DNA of 64,000 nucleotides from Solirubrobacterales bacterium (GTDB lineage Bacteria; Actinomycetota; Thermoleophilia; Solirubrobacterales; 70-9): NCBI GenBank assembly GCA_033856455.1, contig JAWVEZ010000106.1, positions 4,687-68,686 on the forward strand. The letters are read 5' to 3'. The translations under genes and the position numbers were made by a program. Of this stretch, positions 3,547 to 35,876 are shown piece by piece; the first letter of the stretch is position 1, and every line of letters starts with the position of its first letter. Below the pieces are notes generated by a model that worked only from the letters and a program-made list of their open reading frames with translations, was not told where the DNA came from and did not search any database.

Positions 3547-3575
3547 TTGACAACGGTTGCGACGCGGTCTAGTCT
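3547..3575 (+). promoter_or_regulatory. sigma-70/SigA-type promoter candidate (TTGACA-17 nt-TAGTCT)
   Basis: ttgaca at 3547-3552, a 17-nt spacer, and tagtct at 3570-3575, in the 127-nt gap upstream of the first hydantoinase-A gene. Confidence 0.5.
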
Positions 3576-3607: not shown

Positions 3608-3659
3608 TTAGGAATGAGGGAACTACAGGTGCGACTTGGAGTCGCCCGAGAGGGGATAT

Positions 3660-5792
3660 ATGAGCACGGCTAAGAGCAACGGCGCGACGGAGAACGGCGG
3701 CGGACTCGGTGAGGGCGAGGCCTTCGTCGGGGTCGACGTCGGCGGCACCCACACCGACGTCCAGGTGATCATGGGCAGCCGCGAAGCGCGTGGCAAGGCA
3801 CTCACCACCTATGACGACTTCAGCCGCGGCGTGCTCAGCGCAGTCGGCGTCGCCGCCGAGGACCTCGGGGTCTCACTCGAAGAGCTGCTCGGCTCGACCC
3901 AGCTGTTGGTCAACGCGACCACGGTCGTCACCAACTCGATCACCCAGCTCAGCGGCGCCGAGGTCGGGATCCTCGTCACCCGCGGCTTCCGCGACGAGTT
4001 CCGCTTTGCCGGCGGGCCCCGCATCCGCAACGTCGATGACCACGTCCAGACCAACGTCCCGGACATAGTCAAGCGCGCGAACATCCTCGAGGTCGAGGAG
4101 CGGACCGAATTCTCCGGCGCCGAGCTGGTGCCGCTGAACGAGGAGGACGTGCTCGAGGCGGCGCGGGTGCTGATCGAGGAGAACGGGGTCAGCGCGATCG
4201 CCGTCTGCTTCCTCTCCAGCTACAGCAACGGCTCGCACGAGCAGCAGGCCGCGGAGCTGATCGAAGCCAAGTACCCCGAGATCTTCGTCACCCCCTCGCA
4301 CCGGGTCAGCTCGGTTCGCGGCGAGTACCCGCGCTGGATGACGGCGGTGCTGAACTGCTTCGTCCACGAACACGCGAAGGGCTTCCTCAACGCGCTCGGG
4401 ACCAAGCTCCACGAGGCCGGGTTGCGGGGCAGCGTCGCCTTCTTCCAGGGCCTCGGCGGCGGCGTCAGCCAGGGCCGGGCAGAACAGCTGCCGCTGACCC
4501 TGCTCGGAGCCGGGCCTGCCGGCGGCGCCACCGGCGCCAACGAGCTGGCACGGCGGATGGGGCACGACCGGGTCCTGCTCGGCGACATGGGTGGCACCAG
4601 CTTCGACACCGGCCTGATCTACGACAACGTCGTCCACATCGAGAAGGACGTCAAGGTCGGCCGCTTCAAGACCTCGCTGCCGCTGGTCGACGTGATCTCG
4701 GTCGGCGCCGGCGGCGGCAGCATCGCCTGGATCAGCGAGCGCGGGGTTCCGCAGGTGGGCCCGCAGAGCGCCGGCTCGACCCCGGGCCCTGCCGCCTACA
4801 ACAACGGCGGCACCGATCCGACGGTCACCGACGCGATGATCGCGATGGGCCTGATCGACCCCGGCAACTACCTCGGCGGCCGGGTCGAACTGCGCAGCGA
4901 TCTCGCCGCCGACGCTCTGCTTCGGTTCGGTGAGCCGATGGGGTGGGGGGTCGAGGAGGCGGCCGCCGCGGTCCATGACCTCGTCGTCACCAACATGGCC
5001 AACGCGGTGCGCGAGGTCAGCGTCTCCCATGGGTATGACCCCCGTGAGTTCGTCTTCTACGCCTACGGCGGCACGATGCCGTGGTTCGCGGCGGAGATCG
5101 CCAACGTGCTCGGAATTGGCACCGTGCTGGTCCCCCACAGCAGCTCGGTGTTCTGCGCCCGCGGCCTGCTGGTCTCCGACTACGTCCTCCGCAACGACCA
5201 GACGCTGCAGTCGGCGCTCGACGGCGCCGAGGAGGTTGCCCGTGTCAACGCGGTCGCCCGCGACCTGGTCGCGGTCGGTGAGCAGAGCATGCGCGAGGAG
5301 GGGTTCACGAGCGACTCGATCGAGATCGCCAGGTCCGCCGACTTCCAGTTCGCCGGCCAGGTCCACGCACTGCCGATGCCCCTGCCCGACCGCGAGCTCA
5401 GCGCCGACGACGTGCCGGGGCTGAAAGAGAAGTTCAACGAGGTCTACGAACGGACCTACGGCAAGGGCACCGCCTGGCCGGACGCGCCGCCGCAGATGCT
5501 CAACTACTCGGTAACCGTTACCGGCAAGTTGCCGCGACCCTCGATCGAGGAGCGGCCGCTGGAACCGAGTGAGCGATCAGAGATGCTGCGCAGCGAACGC
5601 GAGGTCTACCTGCCGACCGAGCGCAAGCGCGAGGTGATCCCCGTCTACGACGAGACGAAGGTGACCCCCGGGAGCAGCATCGAGGGCCCGGCCCTGGTTG
5701 AGGCGGTCGACACGACCCTCTTCGTCCCACGCGGCGTCAGCGCCGAGCGGGACCAGCTGATGAACATCGTCCTGAGCACGAAGGAGGCGTAG
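3660..5792 (+). CDS. hydantoinase/oxoprolinase A-family subunit (acetone-carboxylase beta-like), copy 1
   Basis: FVGVDVGGTHTDV ATPase motif, GDMGGTSFD, ISVGAGGGSIAW. ATG at 3660 is preceded by gagagggga. Roughly 70 percent identical by eye to the 17070-19181 product. Confidence 0.9.
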   Translation: MSTAKSNGATENGGGLGEGEAFVGVDVGGTHTDVQVIMGSREARGKALTTYDDFSRGVLSAVGVAAEDLGVSLEELLGSTQLLVNATTVVTNSITQLSGAEVGILVTRGFRDEFRFAGGPRIRNVDDHVQTNVPDIVKRANILEVEERTEFSGAELVPLNEEDVLEAARVLIEENGVSAIAVCFLSSYSNGSHEQQAAELIEAKYPEIFVTPSHRVSSVRGEYPRWMTAVLNCFVHEHAKGFLNALGTKLHEAGLRGSVAFFQGLGGGVSQGRAEQLPLTLLGAGPAGGATGANELARRMGHDRVLLGDMGGTSFDTGLIYDNVVHIEKDVKVGRFKTSLPLVDVISVGAGGGSIAWISERGVPQVGPQSAGSTPGPAAYNNGGTDPTVTDAMIAMGLIDPGNYLGGRVELRSDLAADALLRFGEPMGWGVEEAAAAVHDLVVTNMANAVREVSVSHGYDPREFVFYAYGGTMPWFAAEIANVLGIGTVLVPHSSSVFCARGLLVSDYVLRNDQTLQSALDGAEEVARVNAVARDLVAVGEQSMREEGFTSDSIEIARSADFQFAGQVHALPMPLPDRELSADDVPGLKEKFNEVYERTYGKGTAWPDAPPQMLNYSVTVTGKLPRPSIEERPLEPSERSEMLRSEREVYLPTERKREVIPVYDETKVTPGSSIEGPALVEAVDTTLFVPRGVSAERDQLMNIVLSTKEA

Positions 5793-7982
5793 ATGACCAC
5801 CACGACGCACGATCCGGTTTCGGTTGAGATCCACCGCAAGGCGCTGGAGAACATCACCAACGAGATGGCGATCACGCTGACCCGGACCTCCGGTTCGCCG
5901 GTCGTCTACGAGGTGCAGGACTTCGCCACCTGCCTGATGGACACCGAGGGCGAGCACCTCAGCATGTCGGCCACGATCCTCTTCCACGCCGGCTCCTCAC
6001 TGCTGGGGACGCAGGCCGTGATCGCTTCGCTGGAGGACGGCGAGGAGGTGCGGCCGGGCGACGGCTGGATCGTCAACGACCCGTTCGAGGGCGGCGCCAT
6101 GCACCAGGGCGACGTCGCGATCATCATGCCCCAGTTCTACGAGGACAAGCACATCGGCTGGGCCTTTTCGAACGTCCACGTCGCCGACGTCGGCGGCATG
6201 GGGATCTCCGGCTTCGCCCCGGGTGCCGTCTCCGTCTACGACGAGGGGCTGCGCTTCGTCTCGACCAAGATCATCAGCGACGGCGTCCTCGACCGCGGCT
6301 GGGAACGCCACCTGCAGTCCAACGTCCGCGTCTCGAACCTGCTGCTGAACGACCTGCGCGGGATGATCGCGGCCAACAACGTCGCCCAGCAGAAGCTGAC
6401 CGAGGTCGTCTCGCGCTTCGGCTACGAGCGCTTCGTCGAGTACTGCGAGATCAACAAGACGCTGAGCGAGGAAGCCTTCCGCGAGCGGATCCAGAAGCTG
6501 CCCGACGGCGTCTACAAGACCTCGGAGTGGGTCGAGTTCGACGGCCACGGCGAGGACCTGCTGCTCGAGGTGGAAGTGACGATGGAGATCGACGACTCCG
6601 ACATCCGCTTCGACTTCGTCGCCGACGAGCAGACCTCCGCCTTCGTCAACGGGACCCGTGGAGTCGTTTACGGCAGCCTGATGACGACGTTCCTGACCAC
6701 GCTCGCCTACGGCGACCTGCCCTTCAACGCGGGCATGTGGAGGCCACTGACGATCAACATCGGCGACGAGGGCACGGTCGTCAACGCGGTGCCGCCGGCG
6801 CCGCTCAGCGCCGCCCACTCGACCGCCGGCATGCGCGTCACCCGTGCCGTCAAGGACCTCCTCAACCAGGCCTGCGCAAACAGCGATGACCCGGTGATCC
6901 GCGGCCGGGTCGGCGGCATGGCCGCCGACGGCGTCTGCCTGGTGCCTCTGACCGGGATCGGACGGGGCGGCGCCCCCACCGTTGTCTTCTTCATGGACAA
7001 CGTCACCGGCAACGGCGGCGGTGCGCAGAGCATCATCGACGGCCAGGATTGCTACGGGATCACGATCGGTCCCGGGGTCGGGCTCGGCAGCGTCGAGACC
7101 AACGAGGCCTCGCAGCCCGCGCTCTACCTGTGGCGCAAGCTGATCCAGAACTCGGGCGGCCCCGGGATCCACCGTGGCGGGCAGGGGTTGGAGATCGCCT
7201 ATGCCGTCCACGGCACCGGCCAGCTCGACGGCGCCGTCGCCTTCACCTGCGCGGAGATTCCGAGCAGGGGGGCCGGGGGCGGCTACCCCGCCGGCACCGG
7301 ATCCTGGTCGGCGACCCACGGCACCAATGTCAACTCCGACCTCGAGGCGGGCAAGCAGACCCACGAGGAGACGCTGACCGGCGACTCCCCGCCGGTGCCA
7401 TCCAACCTCGGCCGGCTGCACCTCGGACGCGGCGACGTCATCCGGGTAGGCGGCGGCGGTGGCGGCGGGGTCGGCGACCCGATCCTTCGCGACCCCCAAC
7501 GGGTCGCCGATGACGTCGCGGACGAGTACGTGACCGTGGACAACGCCCGCGCCGCCTACGGCGTCGTGATCGGGGATGACGGAGCGGTCGACACGAAGGC
7601 GACGGAGTCGCTGCGCACCGAAATCCGCGAAAACCGGATCGGCGCTGCGCCCTCGAGTCCTCAGGGCCTTCCGGACACCCCGGGCATCGCGGTCTCGATT
7701 GCCGGCGACGGTCACTGGCACTGCGCCTACTGCGACGGCGACCTTGGCGAGGGCGGCGACGATTGGCGGCAAGGGGCGGTCACCGCCGAAGCCTCGATCT
7801 CCGAGCGCCTCGCCGAGGCGGACATGCACGCGCGACTACGCCAGGGTGCCGGGCCGGTGATGCTCGCCGAGCACTACTGCCCGGACTGCGCCGGCCTGCT
7901 CCTCGCCGACCTCTTCCCGGAGGGCTTCACCGCGCTCGACGTCCCGCAGCTGAAGCAGGCTCGCTCGACGCTCGAGGTCTAG
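5793..7982 (+). CDS. hydantoinase B/oxoprolinase-family subunit fused to a C-terminal 4-Cys acetone-carboxylase-gamma-like domain, copy 1
   Basis: N-terminus DPVSVEIHRKALENITNEMAITLTRTSGSPVVYEVQDF, and GGGGGGVGDP near the usual family end. An extra ~110 aa follows with HCAYCDG ... MLAEHYCPDCAGLLLADLFP. The start abuts the upstream stop. Confidence 0.9.
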   Translation: MTTTTHDPVSVEIHRKALENITNEMAITLTRTSGSPVVYEVQDFATCLMDTEGEHLSMSATILFHAGSSLLGTQAVIASLEDGEEVRPGDGWIVNDPFEGGAMHQGDVAIIMPQFYEDKHIGWAFSNVHVADVGGMGISGFAPGAVSVYDEGLRFVSTKIISDGVLDRGWERHLQSNVRVSNLLLNDLRGMIAANNVAQQKLTEVVSRFGYERFVEYCEINKTLSEEAFRERIQKLPDGVYKTSEWVEFDGHGEDLLLEVEVTMEIDDSDIRFDFVADEQTSAFVNGTRGVVYGSLMTTFLTTLAYGDLPFNAGMWRPLTINIGDEGTVVNAVPPAPLSAAHSTAGMRVTRAVKDLLNQACANSDDPVIRGRVGGMAADGVCLVPLTGIGRGGAPTVVFFMDNVTGNGGGAQSIIDGQDCYGITIGPGVGLGSVETNEASQPALYLWRKLIQNSGGPGIHRGGQGLEIAYAVHGTGQLDGAVAFTCAEIPSRGAGGGYPAGTGSWSATHGTNVNSDLEAGKQTHEETLTGDSPPVPSNLGRLHLGRGDVIRVGGGGGGGVGDPILRDPQRVADDVADEYVTVDNARAAYGVVIGDDGAVDTKATESLRTEIRENRIGAAPSSPQGLPDTPGIAVSIAGDGHWHCAYCDGDLGEGGDDWRQGAVTAEASISERLAEADMHARLRQGAGPVMLAEHYCPDCAGLLLADLFPEGFTALDVPQLKQARSTLEV

Positions 7983-7984
7983 CC

Positions 7985-9538
7985 GTGGAGGCCGGTGGCG
8001 TCGGCTTCTCGGTCGCCGATCTGATCCGCAAGGGACCCCTTTCCAAAGGGAGTCCCGAGCGGGTCGCGCTGGTCTTCGGCGAGCGCCGGGTCACCTACGG
8101 CGAGCTCGACCAGCGCAGCGACCGGGTCGCCGCCGGCCTCACCGAGGCCGGCTTCGCCAAGGGCGAGCGGGCGGCGATCCTCTCCTACAACTCGGTCGAG
8201 TTCGTCGAGCTCTTTTTCGCCATCGCCAAGCTCGGCGGCATCCTCGTCCCGGTCAACTACATGCTGCGCGCGGCTGAGGTGGAGTACGCGCTGGAGGACT
8301 CCGGGGCCACCTGGCTGTTCGCCGACGAGCACGGGATCGAAGTCGCCGGCGAGGTGCTCGACGAGCATCCCGAGGTGCGAGCGGTCGAGATCGGGACCGG
8401 CAGCGACAGCCGAGGAATCGCCTACGAGGAGCTTGCCGCCTCGACCGGGCGGGCGCCGGGGCCCGAGCTGGTCTCGCCAAACGACGTGCTGCTGCTCCAG
8501 TACACCTCCGGGACCACCGGCTTCCCCAAGGGCGCGACCCACACCCACGCCACGGTCCTCTTCAACGCGATGCACCAGGTCCCCGACTTCAAGCTGACCG
8601 AGGACGACGTCTACATCTGCGCGCCGGCCCTCTGCTGGGCGGCCGGGCTGCACAACATCGTGATGCCGCTGTGGTGGATCGGCGGCAGGGTCGTCCTGCA
8701 GCCGAGCGGCGGCTTCGACCCCGACGGCCTCTGCGAGACGATCGCCGCCGAGGGCGGCACGGTGATGATCGTCGTCGCCTCGGTGCTCTCGCGGCTGGTC
8801 TCCTCCGGCGCCCTCGAGCGCCACGACCTCTCGCGGCTGCGGCTGCTCGCCACCGGGGGCGAAGCGGTATCCCTGCAGATGCTGGAAACGGTGCGCGGGG
8901 CGCTGCCGCAGACCGACGTCCTCCAGGTCTATGGCCAGTCGGAGTTCCCGACCCTGATGGCGCTGCTGAGCGCCGACCGGGCACTCGAGAAGCCCGCCTC
9001 GACCGGCAAGGCGACCTCGCTCTGCGAGTTGCGCGTGGTCGACTCCGAGGGCGGTGAGCTCCCCCCGCACGAACACGGCGACATCATCTGCCGCTCACCG
9101 GCGACGATGATCGGCTACTGGGAGAAGCCCGAGCAGACCGCGACGACGATCGTCGACGGCTGGCTCTGGACCGGCGATCGCGGTTACACCGACGAGGACG
9201 GCTTCCTCTACATCGCCGGCCGCAGCAAGGAGATGTACATCAGCGGCGGCCTCAACGTCTATCCGGCCGAGATCGAGGTGGTGCTGGCGTCTCACCCCGA
9301 CGTCAGCGAGGCCGCGGTCAGAGGCGTCCCGCACGATTCCCTCGGCGAGGTCGGCTGCGCCTTCGTCGTCGGCGAGGGAGTCGACCTCGAGCAGGTGGAG
9401 GCCTTCTGCCGCGAGCGCCTCGCCACCTACAAAGTGCCGAGGAGCTGGGTGCTGCGGGACGAGCCGCTGCCGCGCACCGCCTCCGGCAAGCCGGAAAAGC
9501 ACCGGCTCGAGGTTCCCGCGGAGACGGCCGGGGCTTGA
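7985..9538 (+). CDS. AMP-forming acyl-CoA synthetase (FadD/ANL family), copy 1
   Basis: LQYTSGTTGFPKGA (A3 motif), YGQSE, WTGDRGY, SGKPEK. GTG at 7985 is 2 nt after the upstream stop. The 7763 start in the track overlaps the preceding gene. Confidence 0.85.
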   Translation: MEAGGVGFSVADLIRKGPLSKGSPERVALVFGERRVTYGELDQRSDRVAAGLTEAGFAKGERAAILSYNSVEFVELFFAIAKLGGILVPVNYMLRAAEVEYALEDSGATWLFADEHGIEVAGEVLDEHPEVRAVEIGTGSDSRGIAYEELAASTGRAPGPELVSPNDVLLLQYTSGTTGFPKGATHTHATVLFNAMHQVPDFKLTEDDVYICAPALCWAAGLHNIVMPLWWIGGRVVLQPSGGFDPDGLCETIAAEGGTVMIVVASVLSRLVSSGALERHDLSRLRLLATGGEAVSLQMLETVRGALPQTDVLQVYGQSEFPTLMALLSADRALEKPASTGKATSLCELRVVDSEGGELPPHEHGDIICRSPATMIGYWEKPEQTATTIVDGWLWTGDRGYTDEDGFLYIAGRSKEMYISGGLNVYPAEIEVVLASHPDVSEAAVRGVPHDSLGEVGCAFVVGEGVDLEQVEAFCRERLATYKVPRSWVLRDEPLPRTASGKPEKHRLEVPAETAGA

Positions 9539-10557
9539 AGGCCGGAATCTGGGAGGGCGGCGGCACGATCTCCTGCGGCGAGGTCGAGCGGCCGCAGCCG
9601 GGGGCAGGTGAGCTGCTGGTCGAGATCGCCTACTGCGGCGTCTGCGGCACCGACCTGCACATCCTCGACGGCGAGTTCGACGTCGGCCCGCCGCCCCAGG
9701 TGCTCGGCCACGAGGCCGCCGGGGTGGTCGTCGCCGGCGGCCCCGAGACCGACCCGGACCTGATCGGCAGGGCGGTCGGCCTCAACCCGATCGGCCCCTG
9801 CGGCACCTGCGTCTGGTGTCGCGCCGGGCACCCGACCCACTGCCGCCGTCCGTATTTCAGCGCCAGCGCCTACGCCGAGTACGCGCTCTACCGGCCTCAG
9901 CAGCTGTATCGGCTGCCCGGCGGCGTGCCGCTGCTTGACGCCGCTCTGCTCGAGCCCTGGGCGACGGCGCTGCGGGCGGTCGAGACGGCACGGGTGCGGG
10001 CCGGAGAGAACGTGCTGGTGATCGGCGGCGGCTCGCTCGGCGTTCTGCTCGCCACCGCGGCGCGCGCTTTCGGCGCAGCCAGCATCACCGTCTCCGAGCC
10101 GCGCCGCCGCAATCGCGAGCTCGCCAAGGTTCGGGGCGCCGACGCCGCGGTCGACCCCGCGGTCGAGGACCTGGAGAGGCTCGCCGCCGCCACCGGTGAG
10201 CTGCGCGGCTTCGACGTCGTCTTCGAAGTTGCCGGCGTGGCCGCGGCCTTGCAGCAGGCGCCGGCGCTGTTGCGGCGAGCCGGCAGGCTGGTTGTCCTCG
10301 GTGTGTTCGGCGCGGAGATGAGGATCCCGCTCGCCCCGACGGCGCTGACCGAGCGCGAGCTGACGATTCTCGGCTCCTTCGGCGGTGGCGAGAGCTTCGG
10401 CCGCGCCGCCTCGCTGCTGTCGGCGGTTGACGCCGCCTCGCTCGTCACCGCGGTCGAGCCGGTCGAGAGGATCGCCGAGCTGTTCGGTCGGATCCGGGCC
10501 GGCGAGGAGGTCAAGGGGATGATCCAGCCGGGCCGTGGCGAGGATGTCGGCGCCTAG
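9535..10557 (+). CDS. zinc-dependent medium-chain alcohol dehydrogenase/reductase
   Basis: CGVCGTDLH, GHEAAGVV, structural-zinc Cys cluster GPCGTCVWC, and GGGSLG Rossmann motif. ATGA overlap with the upstream gene. Confidence 0.85.
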   Translation: MKAGIWEGGGTISCGEVERPQPGAGELLVEIAYCGVCGTDLHILDGEFDVGPPPQVLGHEAAGVVVAGGPETDPDLIGRAVGLNPIGPCGTCVWCRAGHPTHCRRPYFSASAYAEYALYRPQQLYRLPGGVPLLDAALLEPWATALRAVETARVRAGENVLVIGGGSLGVLLATAARAFGAASITVSEPRRRNRELAKVRGADAAVDPAVEDLERLAAATGELRGFDVVFEVAGVAAALQQAPALLRRAGRLVVLGVFGAEMRIPLAPTALTERELTILGSFGGGESFGRAASLLSAVDAASLVTAVEPVERIAELFGRIRAGEEVKGMIQPGRGEDVGA

Positions 10558-11789
10558 ACCGTGGTCGCGGTGCCGATTGCGACGACGCCGTCGTCCTCGA
10601 GCCTGCCGATCTCGGCCGGGCTGAGACCGAGCACCTCGGCGAGAACCTGCTCGGTGTGCTCACCGAGGGTGGGGGCACGACGAACGGGGACTCGGCCCGC
10701 AGCCGAGAAGTCGAGGGGCGAGCCCGGCATCAGGTAGCTGCCGACTCCGGGATGCTCGACCGTCTCGAACATCGGGTTCGCGGGCGAGCAGCGCGGGTCC
10801 TCGGCAACCAGCTGGCGAAAGGTCTGGTACGGGCCCCAGGAGACGCCGGTGCCGGCGAACGCCTCGCGGATCGTCTCCAGGTCGCGGCTCGCAAACCACG
10901 GTCGCAGCAGCGCCGCGATCAGGTCGCGGGCTTCGAAGCGGCCGCTCTCGGTGCTGAGGTCGTGGCCGGTGACCCGCTCGATCCCCGTGCACGCCTCGCC
11001 GATCTCGGTCACCTCCTGCAACGCGCTCCACTGCCGTGCGGTCAGCGCGACCACCATCAGGCGGCGGCCGTCGCGGGTCTCGAAGTCGTGTCCGAAGGCG
11101 CCGTAGAGGTAGTTGCCGTCCTTTGGGTTGTCCCTGCCGCCGAGCGTCGTCTCGGCGATCCGGCCGAGGTTGCCGACCATCGCGAAGGCGACGTCGGAGA
11201 GCGAGAGCCGGACCTGCTGGCCCTCGCCGCTGCGGGCGCGGCTGCGCTCCGCCGCCAGGAGGCCGACCGCCGCCAGGGTGCCCATCGCCACGTCCCAGGC
11301 GGGGAGGACGCTGTTCAGCGGCTCGGCCAGGTTGCGCGGCCCGGTCGCCCAGGGGAATCCGGTCGCCGGGTTGACGGTGTAGTCGACCTCGCTGGTGCCG
11401 TCCGGGTTGCCGGTCAGCGCGACCATGATCAGGTCGCGCCGGTGCCGGCGCAGGGACTCGTAGTCGAGCCAGCCGCGGGCCGGGAAGTTGGTCAGGAAGG
11501 TCCCGGCTTCGGACCCCGGGGCGGTGATCAGGGCCAGCGCCAGCTCCCTGCCCTCGGGCCGGCGCAGGTCGAGCTCGATCGAGCGCTTGCCCTTGTTGAG
11601 GCCGGCCCAGAAGAGGCTCTGGCCGTCGTCGGCCAGCGGCCAGCGACCGTGGTCGAGGCCGCCGCCGATCTGGTCGAAGCGGATCACGTCGGCGCCGAGC
11701 TGGGCCAGCGTCATCCCGCCCAAGGGGGCCGCGACGAAAGCCGAGCCCTCGACCACCCGCAGGCCCGCCAGCACCCCCTTGCCGTCCAT
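10554..11789 (-). CDS. family III CoA-transferase (CaiB/BaiF-like)
   Basis: MDGKGVLAGLRVVEGSAFVAAPLGGMTLAQLGADVIRFD is the family N-terminus. The ATG (cat at 11787-11789) was located by counting 411 codons from the stop. The remainder of the 711-aa track ORF is an Arg/Pro-rich artefact. Confidence 0.85.
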   Translation of the reverse strand: MDGKGVLAGLRVVEGSAFVAAPLGGMTLAQLGADVIRFDQIGGGLDHGRWPLADDGQSLFWAGLNKGKRSIELDLRRPEGRELALALITAPGSEAGTFLTNFPARGWLDYESLRRHRRDLIMVALTGNPDGTSEVDYTVNPATGFPWATGPRNLAEPLNSVLPAWDVAMGTLAAVGLLAAERSRARSGEGQQVRLSLSDVAFAMVGNLGRIAETTLGGRDNPKDGNYLYGAFGHDFETRDGRRLMVVALTARQWSALQEVTEIGEACTGIERVTGHDLSTESGRFEARDLIAALLRPWFASRDLETIREAFAGTGVSWGPYQTFRQLVAEDPRCSPANPMFETVEHPGVGSYLMPGSPLDFSAAGRVPVRRAPTLGEHTEQVLAEVLGLSPAEIGRLEDDGVVAIGTATTV

Positions 11790-11800: not shown

Positions 11801-12997
11801 TCAGCTGGCGGGCTTGTAAACGGTGACGACGGCGGCGCCGCCGAGGCCGATGTTGTGCTGCAGCGCCACCTTGGCGCCGTCGACCTGGCGTTCGTCGGCC
11901 TTGCCCCGCAGCTGCCAGTTCAGTTCCGCGCACTGAGCGAGGCCGGTGGCGCCGAGCGGGTGGCCCTTGGAGATCAGGCCGCCCGAGGGGTTGATCACCG
12001 GGCCCTCGCCGCCGTAGGTGACGGCTTCGGCCTCGACCAGCTTCTGCCCCTCGCCCTCGTCGGCGAACCCGAGGGCTTCGTAGCTGATCAGCTCGTTGGT
12101 GCTGAAGCAGTCGTGCAGCTCGCAGACGTCGACGTCGTCCGGTCCCAGTTCGGCTTCCTCGTAGGCCTGGCGGGCCGCCTCGCGACTCATCTCCGAGCCG
12201 ACGATCTTCATGCAGTCGGTGTCGACGGCGAAGGTGGAGGAGAGGTCGGTGACCATCGCCTGGCCGACGATCTCGATCGCCTGGTCCCAGAGGTCGTGCT
12301 CGTCGACGAAGCGCTCGGAGGCAACGATCGCGGCGGCGCTGCCGTCGCTGGTCGGCGAGCACTGGAGCTTGGTCAGCGGCTCGTGGATCATTCGCGAGGC
12401 CTGGATCTCCTCGAGCGTGTAGACGTCCTGGAACTGGGCGTAGGGGTTGTTGGCCGAGTGCTTGTGGTTCTTCCACGCGATCCAGGCGAAATGATCGGGA
12501 GTCGAGCCGTAGCGCTGCATGTGGTCGCGGCCGGCGTTGCCGAACATTTCCGGCGCGAAGGGATTGCCCTCGGGTGAGCGCAGCTCGGCCATGCGATCGG
12601 TGTGGCGGCCGAGGGGGTTGGCACGGTCCGCGTAGCCGACGCCGAGCGAGCCGCGCTGCATTTTCTCGAAGCCGACCGCGAGAGCGCACTCGGCGAGGCC
12701 GCCCTTGACCGCCTCACGGGCCATCAACAGCGCCGAGGAGCCGGTCGAGCAGTTGTTGTTGACGTTGACGATCGGGATCCCCGAGAGGCCGAGGCCATAG
12801 ACGGCGCGCTGGCCCGCGGTGGAGTCGCCGTAGCAGTAGCCCGCGGCGGCGCGCTCGATTGCCCCGTAGGAGACCCCCGCGTCCTCGAGAGCCATCGAGC
12901 CGGCCTCTTCGACCCAGTCCGGGTAGTCGCCGGGCTTGCTTCCGGGCTTGTCGAACTTGGTCATCCCGACACCGATCACGTAGGTGCGATTGCTCAT
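11801..12997 (-). CDS. SCPx-type thiolase / lipid-transfer-protein (Ltp)-like
   Basis: [19 protein letters not shown], active-site region [11 protein letters not shown], and C-terminal GHPLGATG...NIGLGGA. Confidence 0.85.
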
Positions 12998-13177: not shown

Positions 13178-14389
13178 ATGCAGATGAAGCGAATTTTTAG
13201 ACTGGGCGGTGCGCTGACCTGTTTGGCAGCCGCATTGCTGGCCATCGGCCTCAGTGCCTGTGGTGGCTCGGACGACAGCACCAGCAGTTCGAGTTCGGGC
13301 GCGAGCACCGAAGCGGGAAGCACCGAAAGTGGCAGCAGCGACGCCGACGCGGCGGTCGCCAAGGCCGAAAAATACCTCGAAGAAAACGGCAAAGGCGTGG
13401 GCGGTCCGCTCCCGACCGAGCCTGCCAAAGCCCCGCCCGGGAAAGACGTCTGGATCCTCTCCTGCGCCGAGGCTGCGAGCGGCTGTCAGACGATCACCGC
13501 CGGGATCAAAGAAGCGGCCGAGGAAGTCGGTTGGAAGACGACCGTCGTCGACGGTGCGGGCGACGTCACCAAATGGAACTCCGCGGTTGATCAGGCGAGG
13601 GTCGCCGGCGCCGACGCGTTCTTCGCCGTCTCGGTCGACTGTGCGCCGATCAAACAGGCTCTCGAACGGGCCAAAGCGTCGGGCATGATCACCGAGGGCG
13701 TCTCCGACTACGACTGCAGCGACCCGCTCGAGGGCGGCACCGAGCCGCTCTTCACCCACGTCTTCGAAGGCCCGTTCAAAGGCCCCGAAAGCTGGGCGAA
13801 ACTCGGCGAAGCGGGCGGTGGGCTCCAGGCCGCATGGGACATCGTCAACATCGAGGGCGACAAGAAAGCGATCCAGTTCACCTCGCAGGACGTCGCCGTA
13901 ACCCAGTACATCAGCAAAGGGTTCGAGGAGAACTTCGACTGCCCGGAATGCGAAATCGTCGGTGAGGTTCCGTTCCAGCTGACCGAATTGGGTGCGACGC
14001 TGACCCAAAAGGCCCAGACGGCGATGCTGAAATACCCGGACGCCAACATCATGGCGCCGCCGTATGACCCGGTCTCCGAAAACATCGCCGCGGCGATCGT
14101 CAATTCGGGCAAAGTCGGCAGCATCACCAATACGGGCCTGCTGGCCAGCCCCCCGAACATCGATTTGATTCGGTCGGGCCGTGGACAGGAGATGTCAGTC
14201 GGCTGGGACTCCCGCTGGTTCGGCTGGGCCGCCGTCGATGACGTGATCCGCCTGTTCAACGGACAGGAGCCGGTCTACTCCGGTTGGGATCAGGGCATCG
14301 TCGACAAAGACAACCTCCCCGAGGGAGACACGTACGTAGCACCCGTCGACTACATCTCCAACTACAAGAAGCTCTGGGGACTGGGTTGA
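13178..14389 (+). CDS. ABC transporter substrate-binding lipoprotein (type I periplasmic-binding fold, sugar/polyol-like)
   Basis: Signal peptide with lipobox LSAC followed by a Ser/Asp-rich linker. Adjacent to CUT2-type ATPase and permease genes. The alternative ATG at 13184 has better spacing from gaaaggg. Confidence 0.8.
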   Translation: MQMKRIFRLGGALTCLAAALLAIGLSACGGSDDSTSSSSSGASTEAGSTESGSSDADAAVAKAEKYLEENGKGVGGPLPTEPAKAPPGKDVWILSCAEAASGCQTITAGIKEAAEEVGWKTTVVDGAGDVTKWNSAVDQARVAGADAFFAVSVDCAPIKQALERAKASGMITEGVSDYDCSDPLEGGTEPLFTHVFEGPFKGPESWAKLGEAGGGLQAAWDIVNIEGDKKAIQFTSQDVAVTQYISKGFEENFDCPECEIVGEVPFQLTELGATLTQKAQTAMLKYPDANIMAPPYDPVSENIAAAIVNSGKVGSITNTGLLASPPNIDLIRSGRGQEMSVGWDSRWFGWAAVDDVIRLFNGQEPVYSGWDQGIVDKDNLPEGDTYVAPVDYISNYKKLWGLG

Positions 14390-14390
14390 G

Positions 14391-15983
14391 GTGAATCCAC
14401 CTACGGACACGGCTACCGCCCCCCAGGTGGCCCTCCGGGTGGGTGGCGTCGAGAAGTTCTTCGGCGCCACCCACGCCCTCCGGGGTGTCAGTCTGGACCT
14501 GAACCGGCATGAGGTCCATGGCCTCGTCGGCGAGAACGGCTGCGGCAAGTCGACCCTGGTCAAGGTCATGTCGGGGGTGCACCAGGCCGACGCGGGATGG
14601 ATCGAGCGCGACGGCGAGAAGCTCTCCGCCGAGGACGTCACCGCCGCCGCCGCGCGGGCGATGGGGGTCATCGTCGTCCACCAGGAGTCACCGATCTTCT
14701 CCTCGATGTCGGTCGAGGACAACCTCTCGCTGGGCCGCAAGTTCCCCACTCACCTCGGCCGCGTCGATCGCGGCGCCGTCCGCCGCCAGGCGGAAGAGGT
14801 GATCGAGCACTACGAAATTCCGGCTTCCCCTCGCACCCCGGCCAGCGAGCTCAATCCGGCCGTGCGGGCGATGCTCGCGATTGCCCGGGCGCTGCGCGAC
14901 AGCGAACACAAAGACCGCGGCGTCCTCATCCTCGACGAGCCGACCGCCGGTCTCAACGAGGCCGAAACCGACGACCTCCTGGAGGCGGTGCAGCGCTACG
15001 CCGACGAAGGACAAGCGGTGATGCTCGTCTCCCACCGGCTCGACGAGATCGTCGGCGCCTGCAAGCGGGTCACGGTGCTGCGGGACGGCTCGGTCGTGAC
15101 CACGCTCCAGGACGAGGAAATCGACCGCGGCAACATCGTCCGCCTGATGGTCGGCTCCGGCCTCGCCAAGGAGTACGAGGCTGACTCTTCGCGGACGATG
15201 GCAAACCTCGACACGCCGGTCGCGATGGAGTTCACCGACGTCGTCTCGGGCACCCTGCGCGGCGTCTCGCTGCGCGCCCACGAGGGCGAAATCGTCGGCC
15301 TCGCCGGCCAGCTCGGTGCGGGCTGCTCGGAGGCCCTGCGAGTTGCCTACGGAATAACTCCGTTCAGCGCCGGCGAGGTGACCGTCGCCGGCCGTTCGCT
15401 CTCCCGCGGAAGGGGAGTCAAGGCGCAGTCGGACATCGTCGGCTACGTCCCCGCCGATCGGCCCGGCGAAGGGATGTTCGCCGGGCGCTCGGTCCGGGAG
15501 AACCTCGGCGTCGCCGACCGCGGCGAGTACTGGAGGGGGGGCCTCTTCCGACGCGGCCCCGAAATCCGCGACTCGGCGGCGCTGATCGAGAAGTACAGGA
15601 TCAAGGCCGCCTCGCCCTCGGTGCTGATGACCAGCCTCTCCGGCGGCAACCAGCAGAAGGTCGTGATGGCGCGGGTGATGCGCCGCCACCGGCGGCTCCT
15701 GCTGCTCGACGAGCCGAGCCAGGGGGTCGATGTGGGCGCCCGCGCCGACATCCATAAAAGCGTCCGCGAAACGGCCGACGACGGCGCCGCCGTCGTCGTC
15801 GTCAGCTCTGACATGGAGGAGCTGGTGCGGCTCTGCGACCGGGTCGTGATCTTCGTCGACGGGCAGATCGCCGGCGAGCTCGCCAAGGAGAACCTGGACC
15901 GCGAGACCTTGAGCAACCTGATTCACCAAGACGTCCCAACCGGGATCCAACCGAGTTCAACCCAAAGCGGAGGAGAGGCATGA
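14391..15983 (+). CDS. ABC transporter ATP-binding protein with duplicated ATPase domains (RbsA/MglA-like)
   Basis: First domain has Walker A GENGCGKST. Second domain has signature LSGGNQQKV and Walker B LLLLDEPSQGVD. Confidence 0.9.
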   Translation: MNPPTDTATAPQVALRVGGVEKFFGATHALRGVSLDLNRHEVHGLVGENGCGKSTLVKVMSGVHQADAGWIERDGEKLSAEDVTAAAARAMGVIVVHQESPIFSSMSVEDNLSLGRKFPTHLGRVDRGAVRRQAEEVIEHYEIPASPRTPASELNPAVRAMLAIARALRDSEHKDRGVLILDEPTAGLNEAETDDLLEAVQRYADEGQAVMLVSHRLDEIVGACKRVTVLRDGSVVTTLQDEEIDRGNIVRLMVGSGLAKEYEADSSRTMANLDTPVAMEFTDVVSGTLRGVSLRAHEGEIVGLAGQLGAGCSEALRVAYGITPFSAGEVTVAGRSLSRGRGVKAQSDIVGYVPADRPGEGMFAGRSVRENLGVADRGEYWRGGLFRRGPEIRDSAALIEKYRIKAASPSVLMTSLSGGNQQKVVMARVMRRHRRLLLLDEPSQGVDVGARADIHKSVRETADDGAAVVVVSSDMEELVRLCDRVVIFVDGQIAGELAKENLDRETLSNLIHQDVPTGIQPSSTQSGGEA

Positions 15984-17011
15984 GCACCGCGACCCCCGAG
16001 AACCTGCAGGTGTCACCCGCTCCCCAATCACCTCCGGGTGCGGCTTCGCGGAGCCCCCTCTATCTGCTCGGTCAGGCGGCCGAGCGCGGCGGCCTGGTGC
16101 TCCTGCTGCTGGCCGCGATCGCCATCTTCGCGATCGTCGCGCCGGACACCTTCCCGACTTCGGCCAACCTGCAGAGCATCCTGCAGTCGAACTCGGTGCT
16201 CGGTGTGGTCGCCCTCGCCGCGGTGATCCCGTTCGTGGCGGGCCAGTTCGACCTCTCGATCGCCGCCAACGCGGGCTTCGGCTCGATGGTCGCCGGGGCG
16301 CTGATGTCGTTGAGCGGCTGGGCCCTGCTGCCCGCGATCGGCGTCGCGATCGCGCTGACCTCGACGGTCGGCCTGATCAACGGACTCGTCGTCGCCCGCC
16401 TCGGCGTCAACTCGATCATCACGACCCTGGGCACGGCCTCGATCCTCGCCGGGTTGATCCTCTGGATCAGCAAGGGCAACACCCTGGCGACCGGGATCTC
16501 GCCGAAGCTGCTGGAATTCGGCTCGGGGAAATCGCTCGGCCTTCCCCACGTCTTCTTCGTCCTGCTCGCGATCGCGATCCTCGCCGGCTACCTGCTGCGG
16601 CAGACTCCGTTCGGGCGCTCGCTCTACGCGATCGGCGACAACGATCGGGCGGCGACCCTGGTCGGCCTCCCGGTCGCTCGCTACACGATCACCGCCTTTG
16701 TGATCAGCGGTGCCCTGGCCGGTTGCGCCGGCGTTCTGCAGTTGGCCGCCGCCGGCTCCGCCGGCTCCCAGTTCGGCCCCAACCTGCTGCTGCCCGCGCT
16801 GAGCGCCGTCTTCCTCGGCGCCACCGCGATCCGCCCCGGCGACTACAACGTCACCGGCACCCTGATCGCCGTCGCCTTCAACGCCGTCTCGATCAGCGGC
16901 TTGCTGCTGGCGGGCGTCGCCAACTGGGTCCAGTCCGTCTACATCGGCGTCACCCTCGTCGTCGCTGTCGCCATCTCGACCCTGCTGAGGAAGCGACGGA
17001 CCGGACAGTGA
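15980..17011 (+). CDS. ABC transporter permease (RbsC/branched-sugar type)
   Basis: 343 aa, about 9-10 hydrophobic segments, ATGA overlap with the ATPase gene. Confidence 0.85.
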   Translation: MSTATPENLQVSPAPQSPPGAASRSPLYLLGQAAERGGLVLLLLAAIAIFAIVAPDTFPTSANLQSILQSNSVLGVVALAAVIPFVAGQFDLSIAANAGFGSMVAGALMSLSGWALLPAIGVAIALTSTVGLINGLVVARLGVNSIITTLGTASILAGLILWISKGNTLATGISPKLLEFGSGKSLGLPHVFFVLLAIAILAGYLLRQTPFGRSLYAIGDNDRAATLVGLPVARYTITAFVISGALAGCAGVLQLAAAGSAGSQFGPNLLLPALSAVFLGATAIRPGDYNVTGTLIAVAFNAVSISGLLLAGVANWVQSVYIGVTLVVAVAISTLLRKRRTGQ

Positions 17012-17069: not shown

Positions 17070-19181
17070 ATGAGCGGTAACGGAAACGGTTCGAGTGCGC
17101 GGGCATTCGTCGGCGTCGACGTCGGCGGCACCCACACCGACGTCCACGTCCACGTCGGCGGCGACGAAGCCCGTGGCAAGGCGCTGACCACCTACGACGA
17201 CTTCAGTCGGGGGGTCCTCGACGCCCTCAAGGTCGCCGCGGAAACCCTCGACATGTCGCTCGACGACCTGCTCTCGCAGACCGACCTGCTGGTCAACGCG
17301 ACCACGGTCGTCACCAACGCGGTGGCGCAGCTGCGCGGCTCCAAGGTCGGCGTGCTGACCACGTCTGGGTTCGGCGACGAACTGCGTTTCGCCGGCGGCC
17401 CGCGGCTGCGGATCGCCGACGAGCACATGCAGACCAACGTCCCCGACCTGGTCGATCGCCGCGACATCCTCGAGATCGACGGGCGGATCGACTACGCCGG
17501 CAAGGAGCTGGTGCCGCTCGACAGCGCGGCGGTGAAGGAGGCGGCGCGCTTCTTGGTCGAGGAGCGCGAAGTCAGCGCGATCGCGATCTGCTTCCTCTCC
17601 AGCTACCGCAACGACGCCCACGAGGCAGCGGCCGAGAAGATCGTCAAGGAGGCGTACCCGGACGTCTTCACCACCCCTTCCTACAGCGTCAGCGGGGTCC
17701 GCGGCGAGGCGGTGCGGTGGATGACCGCGGTCCTCAACTGCTTCGTCTTCGAGGATGCCGGCAACTTCCTCGACACCCTCAGCACCAAGCTCAACGACGC
17801 CGGCCTGGCGGGGCGCGTCGCCTTCTTCCAAGGGCTCGGCGGCGGCATCTCCAAGGAGCGCGCCGCGCGCCTGCCGCTGGCCCTGCTCGGGGCCGGCCCC
17901 GCCGCCGGTGCGACCGGCGCCAACCAGCTGGCGCGGACGATGGGCCACAGCCGCGTCCTCGTCGGCGACATGGGCGGCACCAGCTTCGACACCGGGCTGA
18001 TTCACGACAACGTCGTCCACGTCGAGAAGTCGGTGCGGGTCGGCCGCTTCCGCACCGCGATGCCGCTCGTCGACGTGATCTCGGTCGGCGCCGGCGGCGG
18101 CAGCATCGCCTGGATCGGCGAGCGCGGCGTGCCGCAGGTCGGCCCTCGCAGCGCCGGTTCGCAGCCGGGTCCCGCCGCCTACGGCAACGGCGGCACCGAG
18201 CCGACGGTGACCGACGCGATGGTCGCGATGGACCTGATCGACCCCGAGAACTATCTCGGCGGCCGGCTCGAGATCCGCAAGGACCTGGCGATCGAGGCCC
18301 TCCGCGAGAAGGTCGGCGAGCAGCTCGGCTGGTCGGTCGAGGAGACCGCCGCCGCCGTCTACGAGCTCGTCGTCGCAAACATGGCCAACGCGGTGCGCGA
18401 GGTCAGCGTCGCCCACGGCTACGACCCGCGCGACTTCGTCTTCTACGCCTATGGCGGCACGCTTCCGTGGTTCGCGGCGGAGATCGCGAGGACGCTGAAG
18501 ATCGAGCGCGTGCTGATTCCCAACAACAGCTCCGTCTTCTGCGCCCGCGGCCTGCTGGCCTCGGACTTCGTCCTCCGCTACGACCAGACGATCCAGTCGG
18601 GGCTCGACTCCGCCGAGGCGCTGCAGCGGATCAACGACGTCTACGGCGAAATGGTCGAGACCGGCCGCGAGGAAATGCGGCGGGAGGGGTTCGCCGACGA
18701 CGCGATCGCGATCGACCGCACGATCGACATGCAGTTCGCCGGCCAGGTCCACGCGCTGCCGATCGCGATCGCCGATCGCGAGATCGCCGACGCCGACGTC
18801 CCCGAGCTGCAGTCCAAGTTCAACGAGACCTACGAGCGCACCTACGGCGCCGGCACCGCCTGGCCGGGAGCGATTCCCCAAGCCCTCAACGTCGCGGTGA
18901 CGGTCAAGGGGCAGATGTCCTCGCACCACCTGACCGAGTATCCGCTCGAGCCCAGCGACGCCGAGGCGATGCGCAAGTCCGAGCGCGAGGTCTACCTGCC
19001 GTCCAGCCACGAACGGGTCTCGGTGCCGATCTACGACGAGGCGAAGTTCACCCCGGGCAGCTCGGTCGAGGGGCCGTCGGTGATCGAGGCGGTCGACACC
19101 ACTCTCTACGTGCCCGCGGGGACCAGCGCGGAGCGGGACCAATATCTGAACGTGCTGCTGACGGTAGGAGGGAACGACTGA
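17070..19181 (+). CDS. hydantoinase/oxoprolinase A-family subunit, copy 2
   Basis: Strong SD aaggagag lies 5 nt before the ATG. FVGVDVGGTHTDV, GDMGGTSFD. Collinear with copy 1. Confidence 0.9.
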   Translation: MSGNGNGSSARAFVGVDVGGTHTDVHVHVGGDEARGKALTTYDDFSRGVLDALKVAAETLDMSLDDLLSQTDLLVNATTVVTNAVAQLRGSKVGVLTTSGFGDELRFAGGPRLRIADEHMQTNVPDLVDRRDILEIDGRIDYAGKELVPLDSAAVKEAARFLVEEREVSAIAICFLSSYRNDAHEAAAEKIVKEAYPDVFTTPSYSVSGVRGEAVRWMTAVLNCFVFEDAGNFLDTLSTKLNDAGLAGRVAFFQGLGGGISKERAARLPLALLGAGPAAGATGANQLARTMGHSRVLVGDMGGTSFDTGLIHDNVVHVEKSVRVGRFRTAMPLVDVISVGAGGGSIAWIGERGVPQVGPRSAGSQPGPAAYGNGGTEPTVTDAMVAMDLIDPENYLGGRLEIRKDLAIEALREKVGEQLGWSVEETAAAVYELVVANMANAVREVSVAHGYDPRDFVFYAYGGTLPWFAAEIARTLKIERVLIPNNSSVFCARGLLASDFVLRYDQTIQSGLDSAEALQRINDVYGEMVETGREEMRREGFADDAIAIDRTIDMQFAGQVHALPIAIADREIADADVPELQSKFNETYERTYGAGTAWPGAIPQALNVAVTVKGQMSSHHLTEYPLEPSDAEAMRKSEREVYLPSSHERVSVPIYDEAKFTPGSSVEGPSVIEAVDTTLYVPAGTSAERDQYLNVLLTVGGND

Positions 19182-21373: not shown

Positions 21374-22119
21374 ACTGCGCCGGGAAGGTCGCTGTGGTCG
21401 CGGGAGGAAGCTCTGGACTGGGCGCGGCGACGGTCGAAGCGCTGACCGACGCCGGTGCCACGGTGGTGGTGCTCGACGTCTCGGTTCCCGAGGAGGGAGC
21501 CGGGTACGAGGGAACGCATTACCGCCTTGCCGACGTTCGTGACTCCGACCAGGTCGCCGCGGCGATCGAGTACGCGGCGAGCCTTGGCGATCTGCGAATC
21601 GTCGCCTCCTGCGCCGGCGTCGGCTCGGTCGGCAAGATCACCCGCAAGGGCCAGCCGCTCGATCTCGACGAGTTCCAGCGGGTGATCGACATCAACCTGG
21701 TCGGCACCTTCAACGTGCTCCGCCACGCGGCGACGCTGATGGTGGAGAACGAGCCGATCGAAGACGAGCGCGGCGTCCTCATCGTCACCGCCTCGGCGGC
21801 CGCCTTCGAAGGCCAGATCGGCCAGGTCGCATACGCCGCCTCGAAGGGGGGCATCGTCGGGATGACCCTGCCGATCGCCCGTGACCTGGCCGCCTCGCAG
21901 GTGCGCTGCGTGGCGATCGCGCCCGGGCTCTTCAACACCCCGCTGCTGGGAGCCCTGCCCGAGGCCGCGCGCAAAGCACTCGAGGAAACGATCCCCAACC
22001 CCTCACGCCTCGGTCGCCCCTCGGAGTTCGGGCAGCTGATGCGGCAGATCGTGGAGAACCCGATGATCAACGGAGAGACCTTGCGGATCGACGGGGCTCT
22101 ACGCATGGCGCCGCGCTGA
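21370..22119 (+). CDS. type II (HSD17B10-like) 3-hydroxyacyl-CoA dehydrogenase, SDR family
   Basis: GKVAVVAGGSSGLG. FQRVIDINLVGTFNV...TASAAAFEGQIGQVAYAASKGGIVGMTLPIARDLA...IAPGLFNTPLL closely tracks my recollection of human HSD17B10. Confidence 0.85.
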   Translation: MNCAGKVAVVAGGSSGLGAATVEALTDAGATVVVLDVSVPEEGAGYEGTHYRLADVRDSDQVAAAIEYAASLGDLRIVASCAGVGSVGKITRKGQPLDLDEFQRVIDINLVGTFNVLRHAATLMVENEPIEDERGVLIVTASAAAFEGQIGQVAYAASKGGIVGMTLPIARDLAASQVRCVAIAPGLFNTPLLGALPEAARKALEETIPNPSRLGRPSEFGQLMRQIVENPMINGETLRIDGALRMAPR

Positions 22120-22120
22120 G

Positions 22121-23734: not shown

Positions 23735-23737
23735 CCC

Positions 23738-26010: not shown

Positions 26011-26083
26011 GCGCGATGGGCCCCCCAACTTCCACATCTACCGATACGTCGAAGGCCAGGCGGCACTCGAAGAAAGGCATTTC

Positions 26084-27262: not shown

Positions 27263-27266
27263 CCCG

Positions 27267-33031: not shown

Positions 33032-33047
33032 GGGGGGCCAGCCTAGC

Positions 33048-33074
33048 AAAAAAAAAGCATGCCTGATGCTTTTT
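33048..33074. promoter_or_regulatory. AT-rich inverted repeat (A9 run; aaaaagcat-gcctg-atgcttttt) in a divergent promoter region
   Basis: Lies between the minus-strand start at 33031 and the plus-strand start at 33121. It is the most AT-rich spot in this part of the window. Confidence 0.4.
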
Positions 33075-33120
33075 ATGTATACGATGGCTCCTTGGTCGTG
33101 CGGCGAACCCGGAACAGACA

Positions 33121-35042: not shown

Positions 35043-35067
35043 GAAAAATCCCGCTTCCCTGCGCTGC

Positions 35068-35865: not shown

Positions 35866-35876
35866 CAACTCCCCCC

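Follow-up and report, generated by a model that had tools for sequence, protein, structure and literature searches.

To our knowledge, only acetone carboxylase (Acx; AcxABC of Xanthobacter autotrophicus, EC 6.4.1.6, PDB 5M45, 5SVB and 5SVC) and acetophenone carboxylase (Apc; ApcABCDE of Aromatoleum aromaticum, EC 6.4.1.8, PDB 5L9W) have been characterised as ATP-dependent, biotin-free ketone carboxylases. Their gamma subunit has served as a marker that sets them apart from the two-subunit lactamases and hydantoinases. In the published classification, gamma is taken to be a separate gene confined to the Acx and Apc branches; it is lacking in every characterised enzyme of the hydantoinase (Hyd) type and is a separate polypeptide in the characterised carboxylases (PMC5214803), the latter point having been made also by the first-pass annotation of the DNA studied here. 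Here we analyze two hyuA/hyuB gene pairs in a 64,000-nucleotide stretch of DNA from a Solirubrobacterales bacterium (the window; positions 4,687 to 68,686 of contig JAWVEZ010000106.1), and show that the last ~110–120 amino acids of both HyuB proteins are truly homologous, by sequence and predicted fold, to AcxC and to the Apc gamma subunit encoded by the ApcB gene.

The G+C content of the window is approximately 70%, and gene calling was guided by the G+C content of third codon positions (GC3). This showed two paralogous hyuA/hyuB pairs, both on the + strand. The first pair begins with hyuA1 (3657..5792), which encodes an ATP-binding subunit of the Hydantoinase_A type with 711 amino acids from the ATG at 3657 (the mechanical open reading frame, ORF, starts with a TTG at 3636) and contains the Pfam domains Hydant_A_N, Hydantoinase_A and Hydant_A_C (E 7e-75). 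The TAG stop codon of hyuA1 directly abuts the ATG of hyuB1-gamma (5793..7982; 729 amino acids), where a Hydantoinase_B core (residues 1 to ~611; PF02538 at 3e-107 over residues 7–563) is followed by a gamma-type domain. In the second pair, hyuA2 (17070..19181; 703 amino acids, identified as the ATP-binding subunit by Pfam) overlaps by 1 nt (TGATG) with hyuB2-gamma (19181..21373; 730 amino acids), which likewise consists of a Hydantoinase_B core (PF02538 at 2.6e-108) and a gamma-type domain. The identity between the two copies is 67% for the A proteins, 60% for the B proteins and 44% for the tails.

The Pfam Hydantoinase_B match ends at residue ~563, and the alignments end at ~607 against CapB of caprolactamase and at ~617 against Acx alpha. 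Measured by these ends, both HyuB proteins have ~110–120 extra amino acids with two CxxC pairs, close to the 105–115 given in the first-pass annotation, whose quoted tail strings were found in the translations of 729 and 730 amino acids. In copy 1, the gamma (Acetone_carb_G) domain, including a conserved linker, covers 7626..7982 (PF08882, four-Cys alignment); its sequence is GDGHWHCAYCDGDLGEGGDDWRQGAV...GPVMLAEHYCPDCAGLLLADLFPEGF, with C644, C647, C696 and C699 as candidate Zn ligands (codons 7722-7724 through 7887-7889). The corresponding domain with linker in copy 2 covers 21014..21373 (PF08882, AlphaFold/Foldseek) and reads DEDWCCAYCEHSLGSLSANWRESATV...PRVMLAEHFCPACAGLLVADLYPQGF, with C642, C645, C694 and C697 as candidate Zn ligands (codons 21104-21106 through 21269-21271). 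The start of this second tail had been placed at 21058, a position off the reading frame by one base; the frame of the ORF, which starts at 19181, is kept from 21059.

The proposal that the tails resemble the gamma subunits of acetone and acetophenone carboxylases was borne out by hmmscan with PF08882 (Acetone_carb_G; gathering threshold 21 bits), with which profile and fold searches of the PDB agreed. Copy 2 scored above the threshold both as the full-length protein (30.4 bits) and as the isolated tail (34.5–34.8 bits), and copy 1 was borderline (17.6 bits full-length, 21.7 bits as the isolated tail). PF08882 was matched by 30 of 30 diverse tails of the family (best 7e-13), and no variation was seen at the four cysteines when 30 tails and 61 full-length proteins were aligned. 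Residues C642/C645/C694/C697 of HyuB2 correspond to C644/C647/C696/C699 of HyuB1, and both sets align with C22/C25/C75/C78 of Apc gamma and C74/C76/C124/C127 of AcxC, which are published Zn or Hg ligands (PMC5214803, PMC5543143). When a profile of the 30 tails was searched against all PDB sequences, it retrieved Apc gamma (5l9w_C, 7e-5) and AcxC (5m45_C and 5svb_C, ~8e-5 to 1e-4); the next match appeared only at E 0.2.

The tail of copy 2 was also modelled alone with AlphaFold2 (predicted local distance difference test, pLDDT, 91.5). A Foldseek search of the PDB with this model gave five significant matches, all of them gamma chains with probability 1.00 (5l9w_C, 5svc_C, 5m45_C, 5svb_F and 5svb_C), and the next matches had E>1. 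Structurally, 5l9w_C matched best, with a query-normalised template-modelling score (TM-score) of 0.62. In the AlphaFold model of full-length HyuB2-gamma (pLDDT 91.5, predicted TM-score 0.92), the pLDDT of the tail was 92–98 over most of its length and lower in the last ~10 residues. The model is consistent with the tail being an ordered domain packed on the HyuB core.

The full-length Pfam score of copy 1, which taken alone is borderline, would fit an explanation of the tails as a frameshift, a mis-joined gene or a chance zinc-ribbon-like sequence. We rejected this explanation, to which we give practically no credence. Conservation of the in-frame linker in many genomes rules out a frameshift or an assembly artefact: fusion and linker are kept in frame in >100 homologues from many taxa. 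The GC3 of 0.93–0.94 along the full length of both hyuB ORFs also speaks against it. A chance zinc ribbon is ruled out by the PF08882 matches of all 30 tails and by the profile and fold searches, which returned gamma chains only. We thus regard it as practically certain that the tails are gamma domains and that they are fused in frame to HyuB; in neither copy is gamma a separate small polypeptide.

A survey of homologues showed that the fusion is much commoner than the first-pass annotation had implied. In a search of 5.8 billion proteins, CxxC...CxxC was present within the last 140 amino acids in all of the 120 closest homologues. These proteins have ~720–735 amino acids, come from Solirubrobacterales, Conexibacter, Pseudonocardia, Nocardioides, Protofrankia and Acrocarpospora, and are named in their sources only as 'hydantoinase B/oxoprolinase family' or 'N-methylhydantoinase B'. 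The 30-tail profile found only 5 matches in the same set, a number that was limited by the word index and is not a count of free gammas; one of them was a contig-end fragment with the NCBI name 'acetone carboxylase subunit gamma'. When 1.84 billion cluster representatives (50% identity) were searched exhaustively with HMMER, 1,259 matched at E<=1e-30. The four-Cys tail (CxxC..CxxC) was found in 90 of the best 150 representatives (28–47% identity), and others among these 150 had an AcxC-like CxC...CxxC tail or a Cys-less version. A few triple fusions of A, B and gamma with ~1380–1430 amino acids were also observed (P0157, P0249, P0252 and P0272); some of their tails are AcxC-like (CxC...CxxC) and some Cys-less, which means that part of the clade can do without the zinc site.

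The fused forms come from Actinomycetota, and there are examples in Proteobacteria too (Novosphingobium, Tsuneonella, Cellvibrionales and Porticoccaceae). Among untailed relatives of ~620 amino acids, a separate PF08882 gene encoding 91–97 amino acids lies directly after hyuB in 6 of the 6 examined, and the free gammas can be aligned over their entire length with the tails of the window proteins. The gamma module was thus found in every clade member examined, whether fused, separate or as part of a triple fusion. The window pairs are the fused state of an A/B/gamma system, each pair encoding a three-module enzyme of the hydantoinase/ketone-carboxylase superfamily in two polypeptides, and most members of this very large clade have the fusion. 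The nearest genome match was a metagenome-assembled genome (MAG) of Thermoleophilia with both copies on one contig, 96% and 61% identical to copy 2. At least 7 paralogous hyuB-gamma loci were present in the MAG Solirubrobacterales MFD00731.bin.2.60 (L045, L049, L050, L053, L055, L057 and L086), and so many paralogues in one genome suggest that the family has diversified towards several substrates.

Precomputed database annotations already show PF02538 joined to PF08882, and the fusion itself is therefore not a discovery. Literature searches on the fusion, PF08882, actinobacterial ketone carboxylases, and levulinate together with hydantoinase found a description of neither the architecture nor the clade. 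The 'acetophenone carboxylase' in genome papers on Paraconexibacter and Rhodococcus refers to four-subunit apc-type clusters and not to this one.

As in other members of the superfamily, genes with PF01968 and PF02538 stand side by side in the window, and the B subunit has an Asp-His-Asp-His site. The candidate metal site of HyuB2, D43/H103/D106/H128, was invariant in 61 homologues and corresponds to D41/H99/D102/H124 of CapB (PMC8453981). We looked for residues that would discriminate carboxylases from hydrolases. The metal tetrad is no discriminator, since it is common to both. The HyuB segment ~492–520 can be aligned with Acx and Apc and shows gaps in CapB and N-methylhydantoinase (NMHase); as CapB contains a shortened form of this segment, it makes only a weak signature. 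The C-terminal helix 'RAQIREQRL' of HyuB aligns with 'RAQIRKDRL' of Acx alpha, whereas CapB ends before it; this helix may correspond to the arm that wraps around gamma in Apc. A Foldseek search with the full-length HyuB2-gamma model ranked ApcD first (2.3e-43), and the query-normalised TM-scores were 0.76 for ApcD, 0.77 for Acx alpha, and 0.71 for CapB and NMHase.

When the gene junctions were read, both hyuAB pairs were found in tightly, translationally coupled operons with genes for AMP-binding acyl-CoA ligases and for alcohol dehydrogenases or short-chain dehydrogenases (SDRs). In cluster 1, hyuB1-gamma is followed, 2 nt past its stop codon, by an acyl-CoA synthetase gene (7985..9538, + strand; Pfam AMP-binding 8e-85), the stop of which is overlapped by the start of a Zn-dependent alcohol dehydrogenase gene (9535..10557, + strand; Pfam ADH_N and ADH_zinc_N). 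Two genes on the - strand come next, one for a family III CoA-transferase similar to the intramolecular mesaconyl-CoA C1-C4 transferase (Mct) (10554..11789; TIGR04253, 567 bits against a cut-off of 725) and one for a thiolase of the SCP-x/lipid-transfer type (11801..12997; NF006102, 624 bits against a cut-off of 436; Pfam Thiolase_C_1). Upstream of hyuA1, on the + strand, there are genes for an acyl-CoA lyase of the HpcH/CitE type (1617-2516) and for a weakly MaoC/mesaconyl-CoA-hydratase-like protein (2477-3532), and a sigma-70-like promoter candidate (TTGACA, 17-nt spacer, TAGTCT; 3547..3575, + strand), which was read by eye and carries low weight. The order HpcH>MaoC>HyuA>HyuBg recurs in L012 and L013. 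The lyase, the MaoC-like ORF and the Mct-like CoA-transferase flank cluster 1, and these flanks hint at dicarboxylyl-CoA intermediates.

Cluster 2 lies entirely on the + strand. Directly upstream of hyuA2 is a sugar-type ATP-binding cassette (ABC) importer with a Peripla_BP_4 binding protein, a double ATPase and a permease (13178..17011); this transporter type adjoins hyuAB-gamma also in L003, L004 and several genome loci. An SDR gene (21370..22119; Pfam adh_short) overlaps hyuB2-gamma in ATGA and is followed by genes for an AMP-binding acyl-CoA synthetase (22121..23734) and for an ACAD11/LvaC-type protein of the acyl-CoA dehydrogenase (ACAD) family (23738..25030), which scored 262–264 bits against ACAD11 among PDB sequences as compared with ~170 bits against ordinary ACADs. 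Then come genes for a protein of the Zn-dependent alcohol dehydrogenase/quinone oxidoreductase type (25027-26010), a family III CoA-transferase (26084-27262), an APH-family kinase that matches the kinase domain of ACAD11 (8v3v; 27267-28316), and a small protein of 144 amino acids that had no Pfam or NCBIfam match (28313-28747). The pairing of APH with the small ORF resembles LvaA/LvaB and was observed near hyuAB-gamma in L001 and L003 as well; the homology of LvaA and ACAD11 has been described (PMC12440821). The region 21370-28747 thus has the appearance of a split LvaABCDE/ACAD11-like module adjoining hyuB2-gamma, which by analogy suggests phosphorylation and elimination of a 4-hydroxyacyl-CoA. 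Genes for an enoyl-CoA hydratase, a further acyl-CoA synthetase (the third of the features given here and the second of cluster 2) and a luciferase-like monooxygenase follow at 28744..32137, and genes of these three kinds recur in related loci.

The catabolic island goes on over 29544-44329, with more AMP-ligases, two further enoyl-CoA hydratase genes, another ACAD, two SDRs, a second luciferase-like monooxygenase, several TetR regulators, and a fused E1 alpha/beta 2-oxoacid dehydrogenase-like gene (37541-39544). At 50251-63793, there are five consecutive large + strand ORFs of 1164, 1076, 628, 951 and 652 amino acids, in which Pfam matched only FN3/PhoD_N-like sequences (first ORF) and Flg_new_2/InlB B-repeat-like repeats (last ORF). 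They probably encode secreted or surface proteins and seem to stand apart from the catabolic island.

Neighbouring genes were compared across 80 related genome loci, 62 of which form the basis of the counts within 1.5 kb. The AMP-ligase was the commonest close neighbour, lying <=1.5 kb from hyuAB in 26 of the 62 loci, and an SDR lay within this distance in 14. The order 'APH> AMPlig> HyuA> HyuBg> (ACAD>)' recurred in many of the related loci. Genes for aminotransferases, amidases, carbamoylases or ammonia handling were found neither among the annotated genes of the window (to ~49 kb) nor in nine Pfam-annotated related loci. Among the relatives with a separate gamma, L008 (1919-7179) encodes a beta-keto-acid cleavage enzyme (BKACE) directly upstream of hyuA, and the genes in L009 (311-11308) have around them those for a thiolase/DUF35 pair, an SDR, an AMP-ligase, and MeaB with a B12-dependent acyl-CoA mutase. 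The contexts of L008 and L009 point to beta-keto-acid chemistry.

From these contexts, the product of the enzymes is probably a carboxylic acid that is turned directly into a CoA thioester, which suits ketone carboxylation better than the opening of a lactam. The route of ethylbenzene degradation by Apc, Bal and thiolase comprises an SDR, a carboxylase, a CoA ligase and a thiolase (PMC5214803), and the known lactam routes proceed via a transaminase (PMC8453981). Mainly on the basis of gene context, we infer, with somewhat more confidence than doubt, that the window enzymes are Acx-like, ATP- and bicarbonate-dependent carboxylases of ketones or other oxo compounds. The first-pass annotation had proposed two-subunit ketone carboxylases with a fused gamma: the arrangement stands, as the order A, B-gamma is that of acxA-acxB-acxC with the last two genes fused, and the choice of ketone carboxylase rather than hydantoinase belongs to the inferred part of the proposal.

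A possible mechanism would be as follows. The single HyuA would phosphorylate the enolised ketone and bicarbonate, and the intermediates would pass through an internal tunnel to the HyuB metal site D43/H103/D106/H128, where the C-C bond would be formed. The gamma domain would act as a structural zinc clamp on HyuB, and its fusion would secure 1:1 assembly. The translationally coupled AMP-ligase could then turn the beta-keto-acid into a CoA thioester, to be broken down by the thiolase, CoA-transferase, hydratase and ACAD11/LvaA-like enzymes encoded nearby, and the adjacent alcohol dehydrogenases could supply the ketone from a secondary alcohol. Since there is one HyuA per B subunit, Acx-like sequential use of one ATP appears more plausible than the two-site mechanism of Apc. 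The conserved ABC importer suggests a polar substrate rather than acetone, and, speculatively, the importer taken together with the LvaABC/ACAD11-like module would point to a polar hydroxy- or oxo compound.

Several observations weigh against carboxylation. The published structures show gamma well away from the active sites, and no part in catalysis has been ascribed to it (PMC5214803, PMC5543143); its presence in the window proteins therefore does not prove carboxylation. The B core scored highest against CapB (195 bits), followed by NMHase (135), ApcD (109) and Acx alpha (106). Among NCBIfam models, CapA and CapB were the best for the window subunits (469–483 bits for A, hyuA1 having 469, and 226–231 bits for B), yet far under their cut-offs of 1000; equivalog-level similarity to CapA/CapB was thus lacking. 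ApcD gave 107–123 bits against a cut-off of 1500 and ApcB 15–19 against 250, and all NCBIfam equivalog models stayed below their cut-offs with every subunit. By sequence score, CapA and Apc alpha are about equally good matches of the A subunit (hyuA2 against PDB sequences: CapA 335, Apc alpha 329, NMHase 306 and Acx beta 245–246 bits). Phylogenetic placement had been proposed as a check, and a neighbour-joining tree was constructed from 139 B cores, with the references CapB, NMHase, ApcD and Acx alpha rebuilt from HMMER alignments. It placed the window clade with neither Acx nor Apc. The tree was star-like (internal branches 0.01–0.07 versus terminal branches of ~0.7; bootstrap 84% for CapB+NMHase and 11% for Apc+Acx), and since the window clade had no supported position in it, it allows no conclusion on the branch. 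Judged by their sequences, the core subunits stand at least as near to caprolactamase as to Acx or Apc. Furthermore, the ACAD11-like and APH kinase neighbours, which belong to 4-hydroxyacyl-CoA chemistry, are not needed for a simple beta-keto-acid route, and biochemical data for any member of the clade were not found in the literature searched.

These observations leave room for the explanation that the pairs encode ATP-dependent ring-opening hydrolases (lactamase, hydantoinase or imidase) that have kept or acquired a structural gamma zinc domain and form an amino or carbamoyl acid. It would agree with CapA and CapB being the top sequence matches of both core subunits, with gamma being described as structural and remote from catalysis, and with a metal tetrad that hydrolases and carboxylases have in common; CapB and NMHase also attached inside the gamma-bearing radiation in the tree, with negligible support. 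However, the characterised Hyd-type enzymes are all without gamma, the CapA/CapB model scores are far from equivalog level, the dominant neighbour is an acyl-CoA ligase, and the transaminase of the known lactam routes (PMC8453981), like other nitrogen-handling genes, was not found near the pairs in the window or in the nine annotated loci. We consider such hydrolases unlikely. Another explanation keeps the carboxylation and changes the substrate to a CoA thioester or an oxo-acid; for example, levulinate or levulinyl-CoA would be converted to a 3-oxo-dicarboxylate, in connection with the Lva-like module and the intramolecular CoA-transferase. The recurrent order of APH, AMP-ligase, HyuA, HyuBg and ACAD genes, the ACAD11/LvaC type of the ACAD, the match of the APH protein to the kinase domain of ACAD11, the correspondence of the window SDR, AMP-ligase and small ORF to lvaABCDE (PMC12440821), the Mct-like transferase (567 bits) and the polar substrate implied by the conserved importer all speak for it. 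The case is one of gene context purely, though; the superfamily has no known member that carboxylates an oxo-acid, the literature search for levulinate together with this family found nothing, and copy 1 and many relatives are without the APH/ACAD module. This substrate assignment therefore seems quite improbable to us.

Taken more widely, carboxylation in these proteins would mean that the clade is a third, very large branch of biotin-independent, ATP-dependent carboxylases, in which a short gamma is usually fused to B and imported polar oxo compounds (hydroxy-ketones or oxo-acids) are fed into CoA-dependent routes, including the LvaABC/ACAD11-like 4-hydroxyacyl-CoA module. We put this forward tentatively, as a proposal somewhat short of even likelihood. 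If the clade does consist of carboxylases, the known diversity of this CO2-fixing chemistry would increase many-fold, notably among the Actinomycetota that abound in soil, the names 'hydantoinase B' and 'N-methylhydantoinase B' would have to be revised for thousands of genes, and simpler two-polypeptide enzymes would be available for biocatalytic C-C bond formation. If its members are hydrolases instead, gamma would be invalid as a marker for annotation, which would also be worth knowing.

In comparison with the known systems, the window pairs are like AcxABC in the order A, B, gamma and in having one ATP-binding subunit for each B. Gamma aligns in its fold and in the positions of the Zn ligands, the metal-site residues are conserved, and the 'RAQIR..RL' helix at the C-terminus of the B subunit is common to both. 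Unlike in Acx, gamma is fused to B in the window; it is without the ~50-residue N-terminal part of AcxC and has CxxC in place of the CxC found there. With Acx alpha, the B core shares no more than ~20–22% identity; it matched Acx alpha as two fragments (103–106 bits), and is without its N-terminal extension and long C-terminal arm (Acx alpha has 776 amino acids). The Acx subunits have 776/717/168 amino acids, and neither a close relationship nor such lengths were found in the window. The neighbours in the window are acyl-CoA ligases of ~520 amino acids, the ABC importer and the Lva-like module. ApcABCDE has the short type of gamma, which is the best structural match to the tail; ApcD was the top Foldseek match of full-length HyuB2-gamma, and the logic of the pathway is as in the ethylbenzene route. 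In contrast with Apc, the window has no second ATP-binding subunit (alpha') and no epsilon, with one HyuA gene per cluster, the gene order differs, and the NCBIfam Apc models scored far under their cut-offs.

CapAB and the ATP-dependent hydantoinases/NMHase (PDB 6YRA and 7HK5) gave the highest sequence scores for both core subunits and have the same metal tetrad and two-gene layout, and CapAB is also bicarbonate dependent (PMC8453981). They differ in having neither a gamma domain nor a gamma gene, CapB ending ~120 amino acids earlier, and in belonging to transaminase pathways, transaminases being absent from the annotated window genes. The Hyd branch (caprolactamase, hydantoinase and oxoprolinase) is described as two-subunit and without gamma (PMC5214803), whereas the window proteins have gamma. 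The three-gene relatives, with hyuA, a hyuB of ~620 amino acids and a gamma of 91–97 amino acids (L004 from Chloroflexota, L005 from Acidobacteriota, and L006-L009), are members of the same clade with 28–36% identity across B. The neighbours of L004 are as in the window (an AMP-ligase and a Peripla_BP_4 ABC transporter), L009 has an AMP-ligase, and L008 has an ABC transporter of a different type. These relatives have the same short gamma as the window pairs, but as a separate polypeptide.

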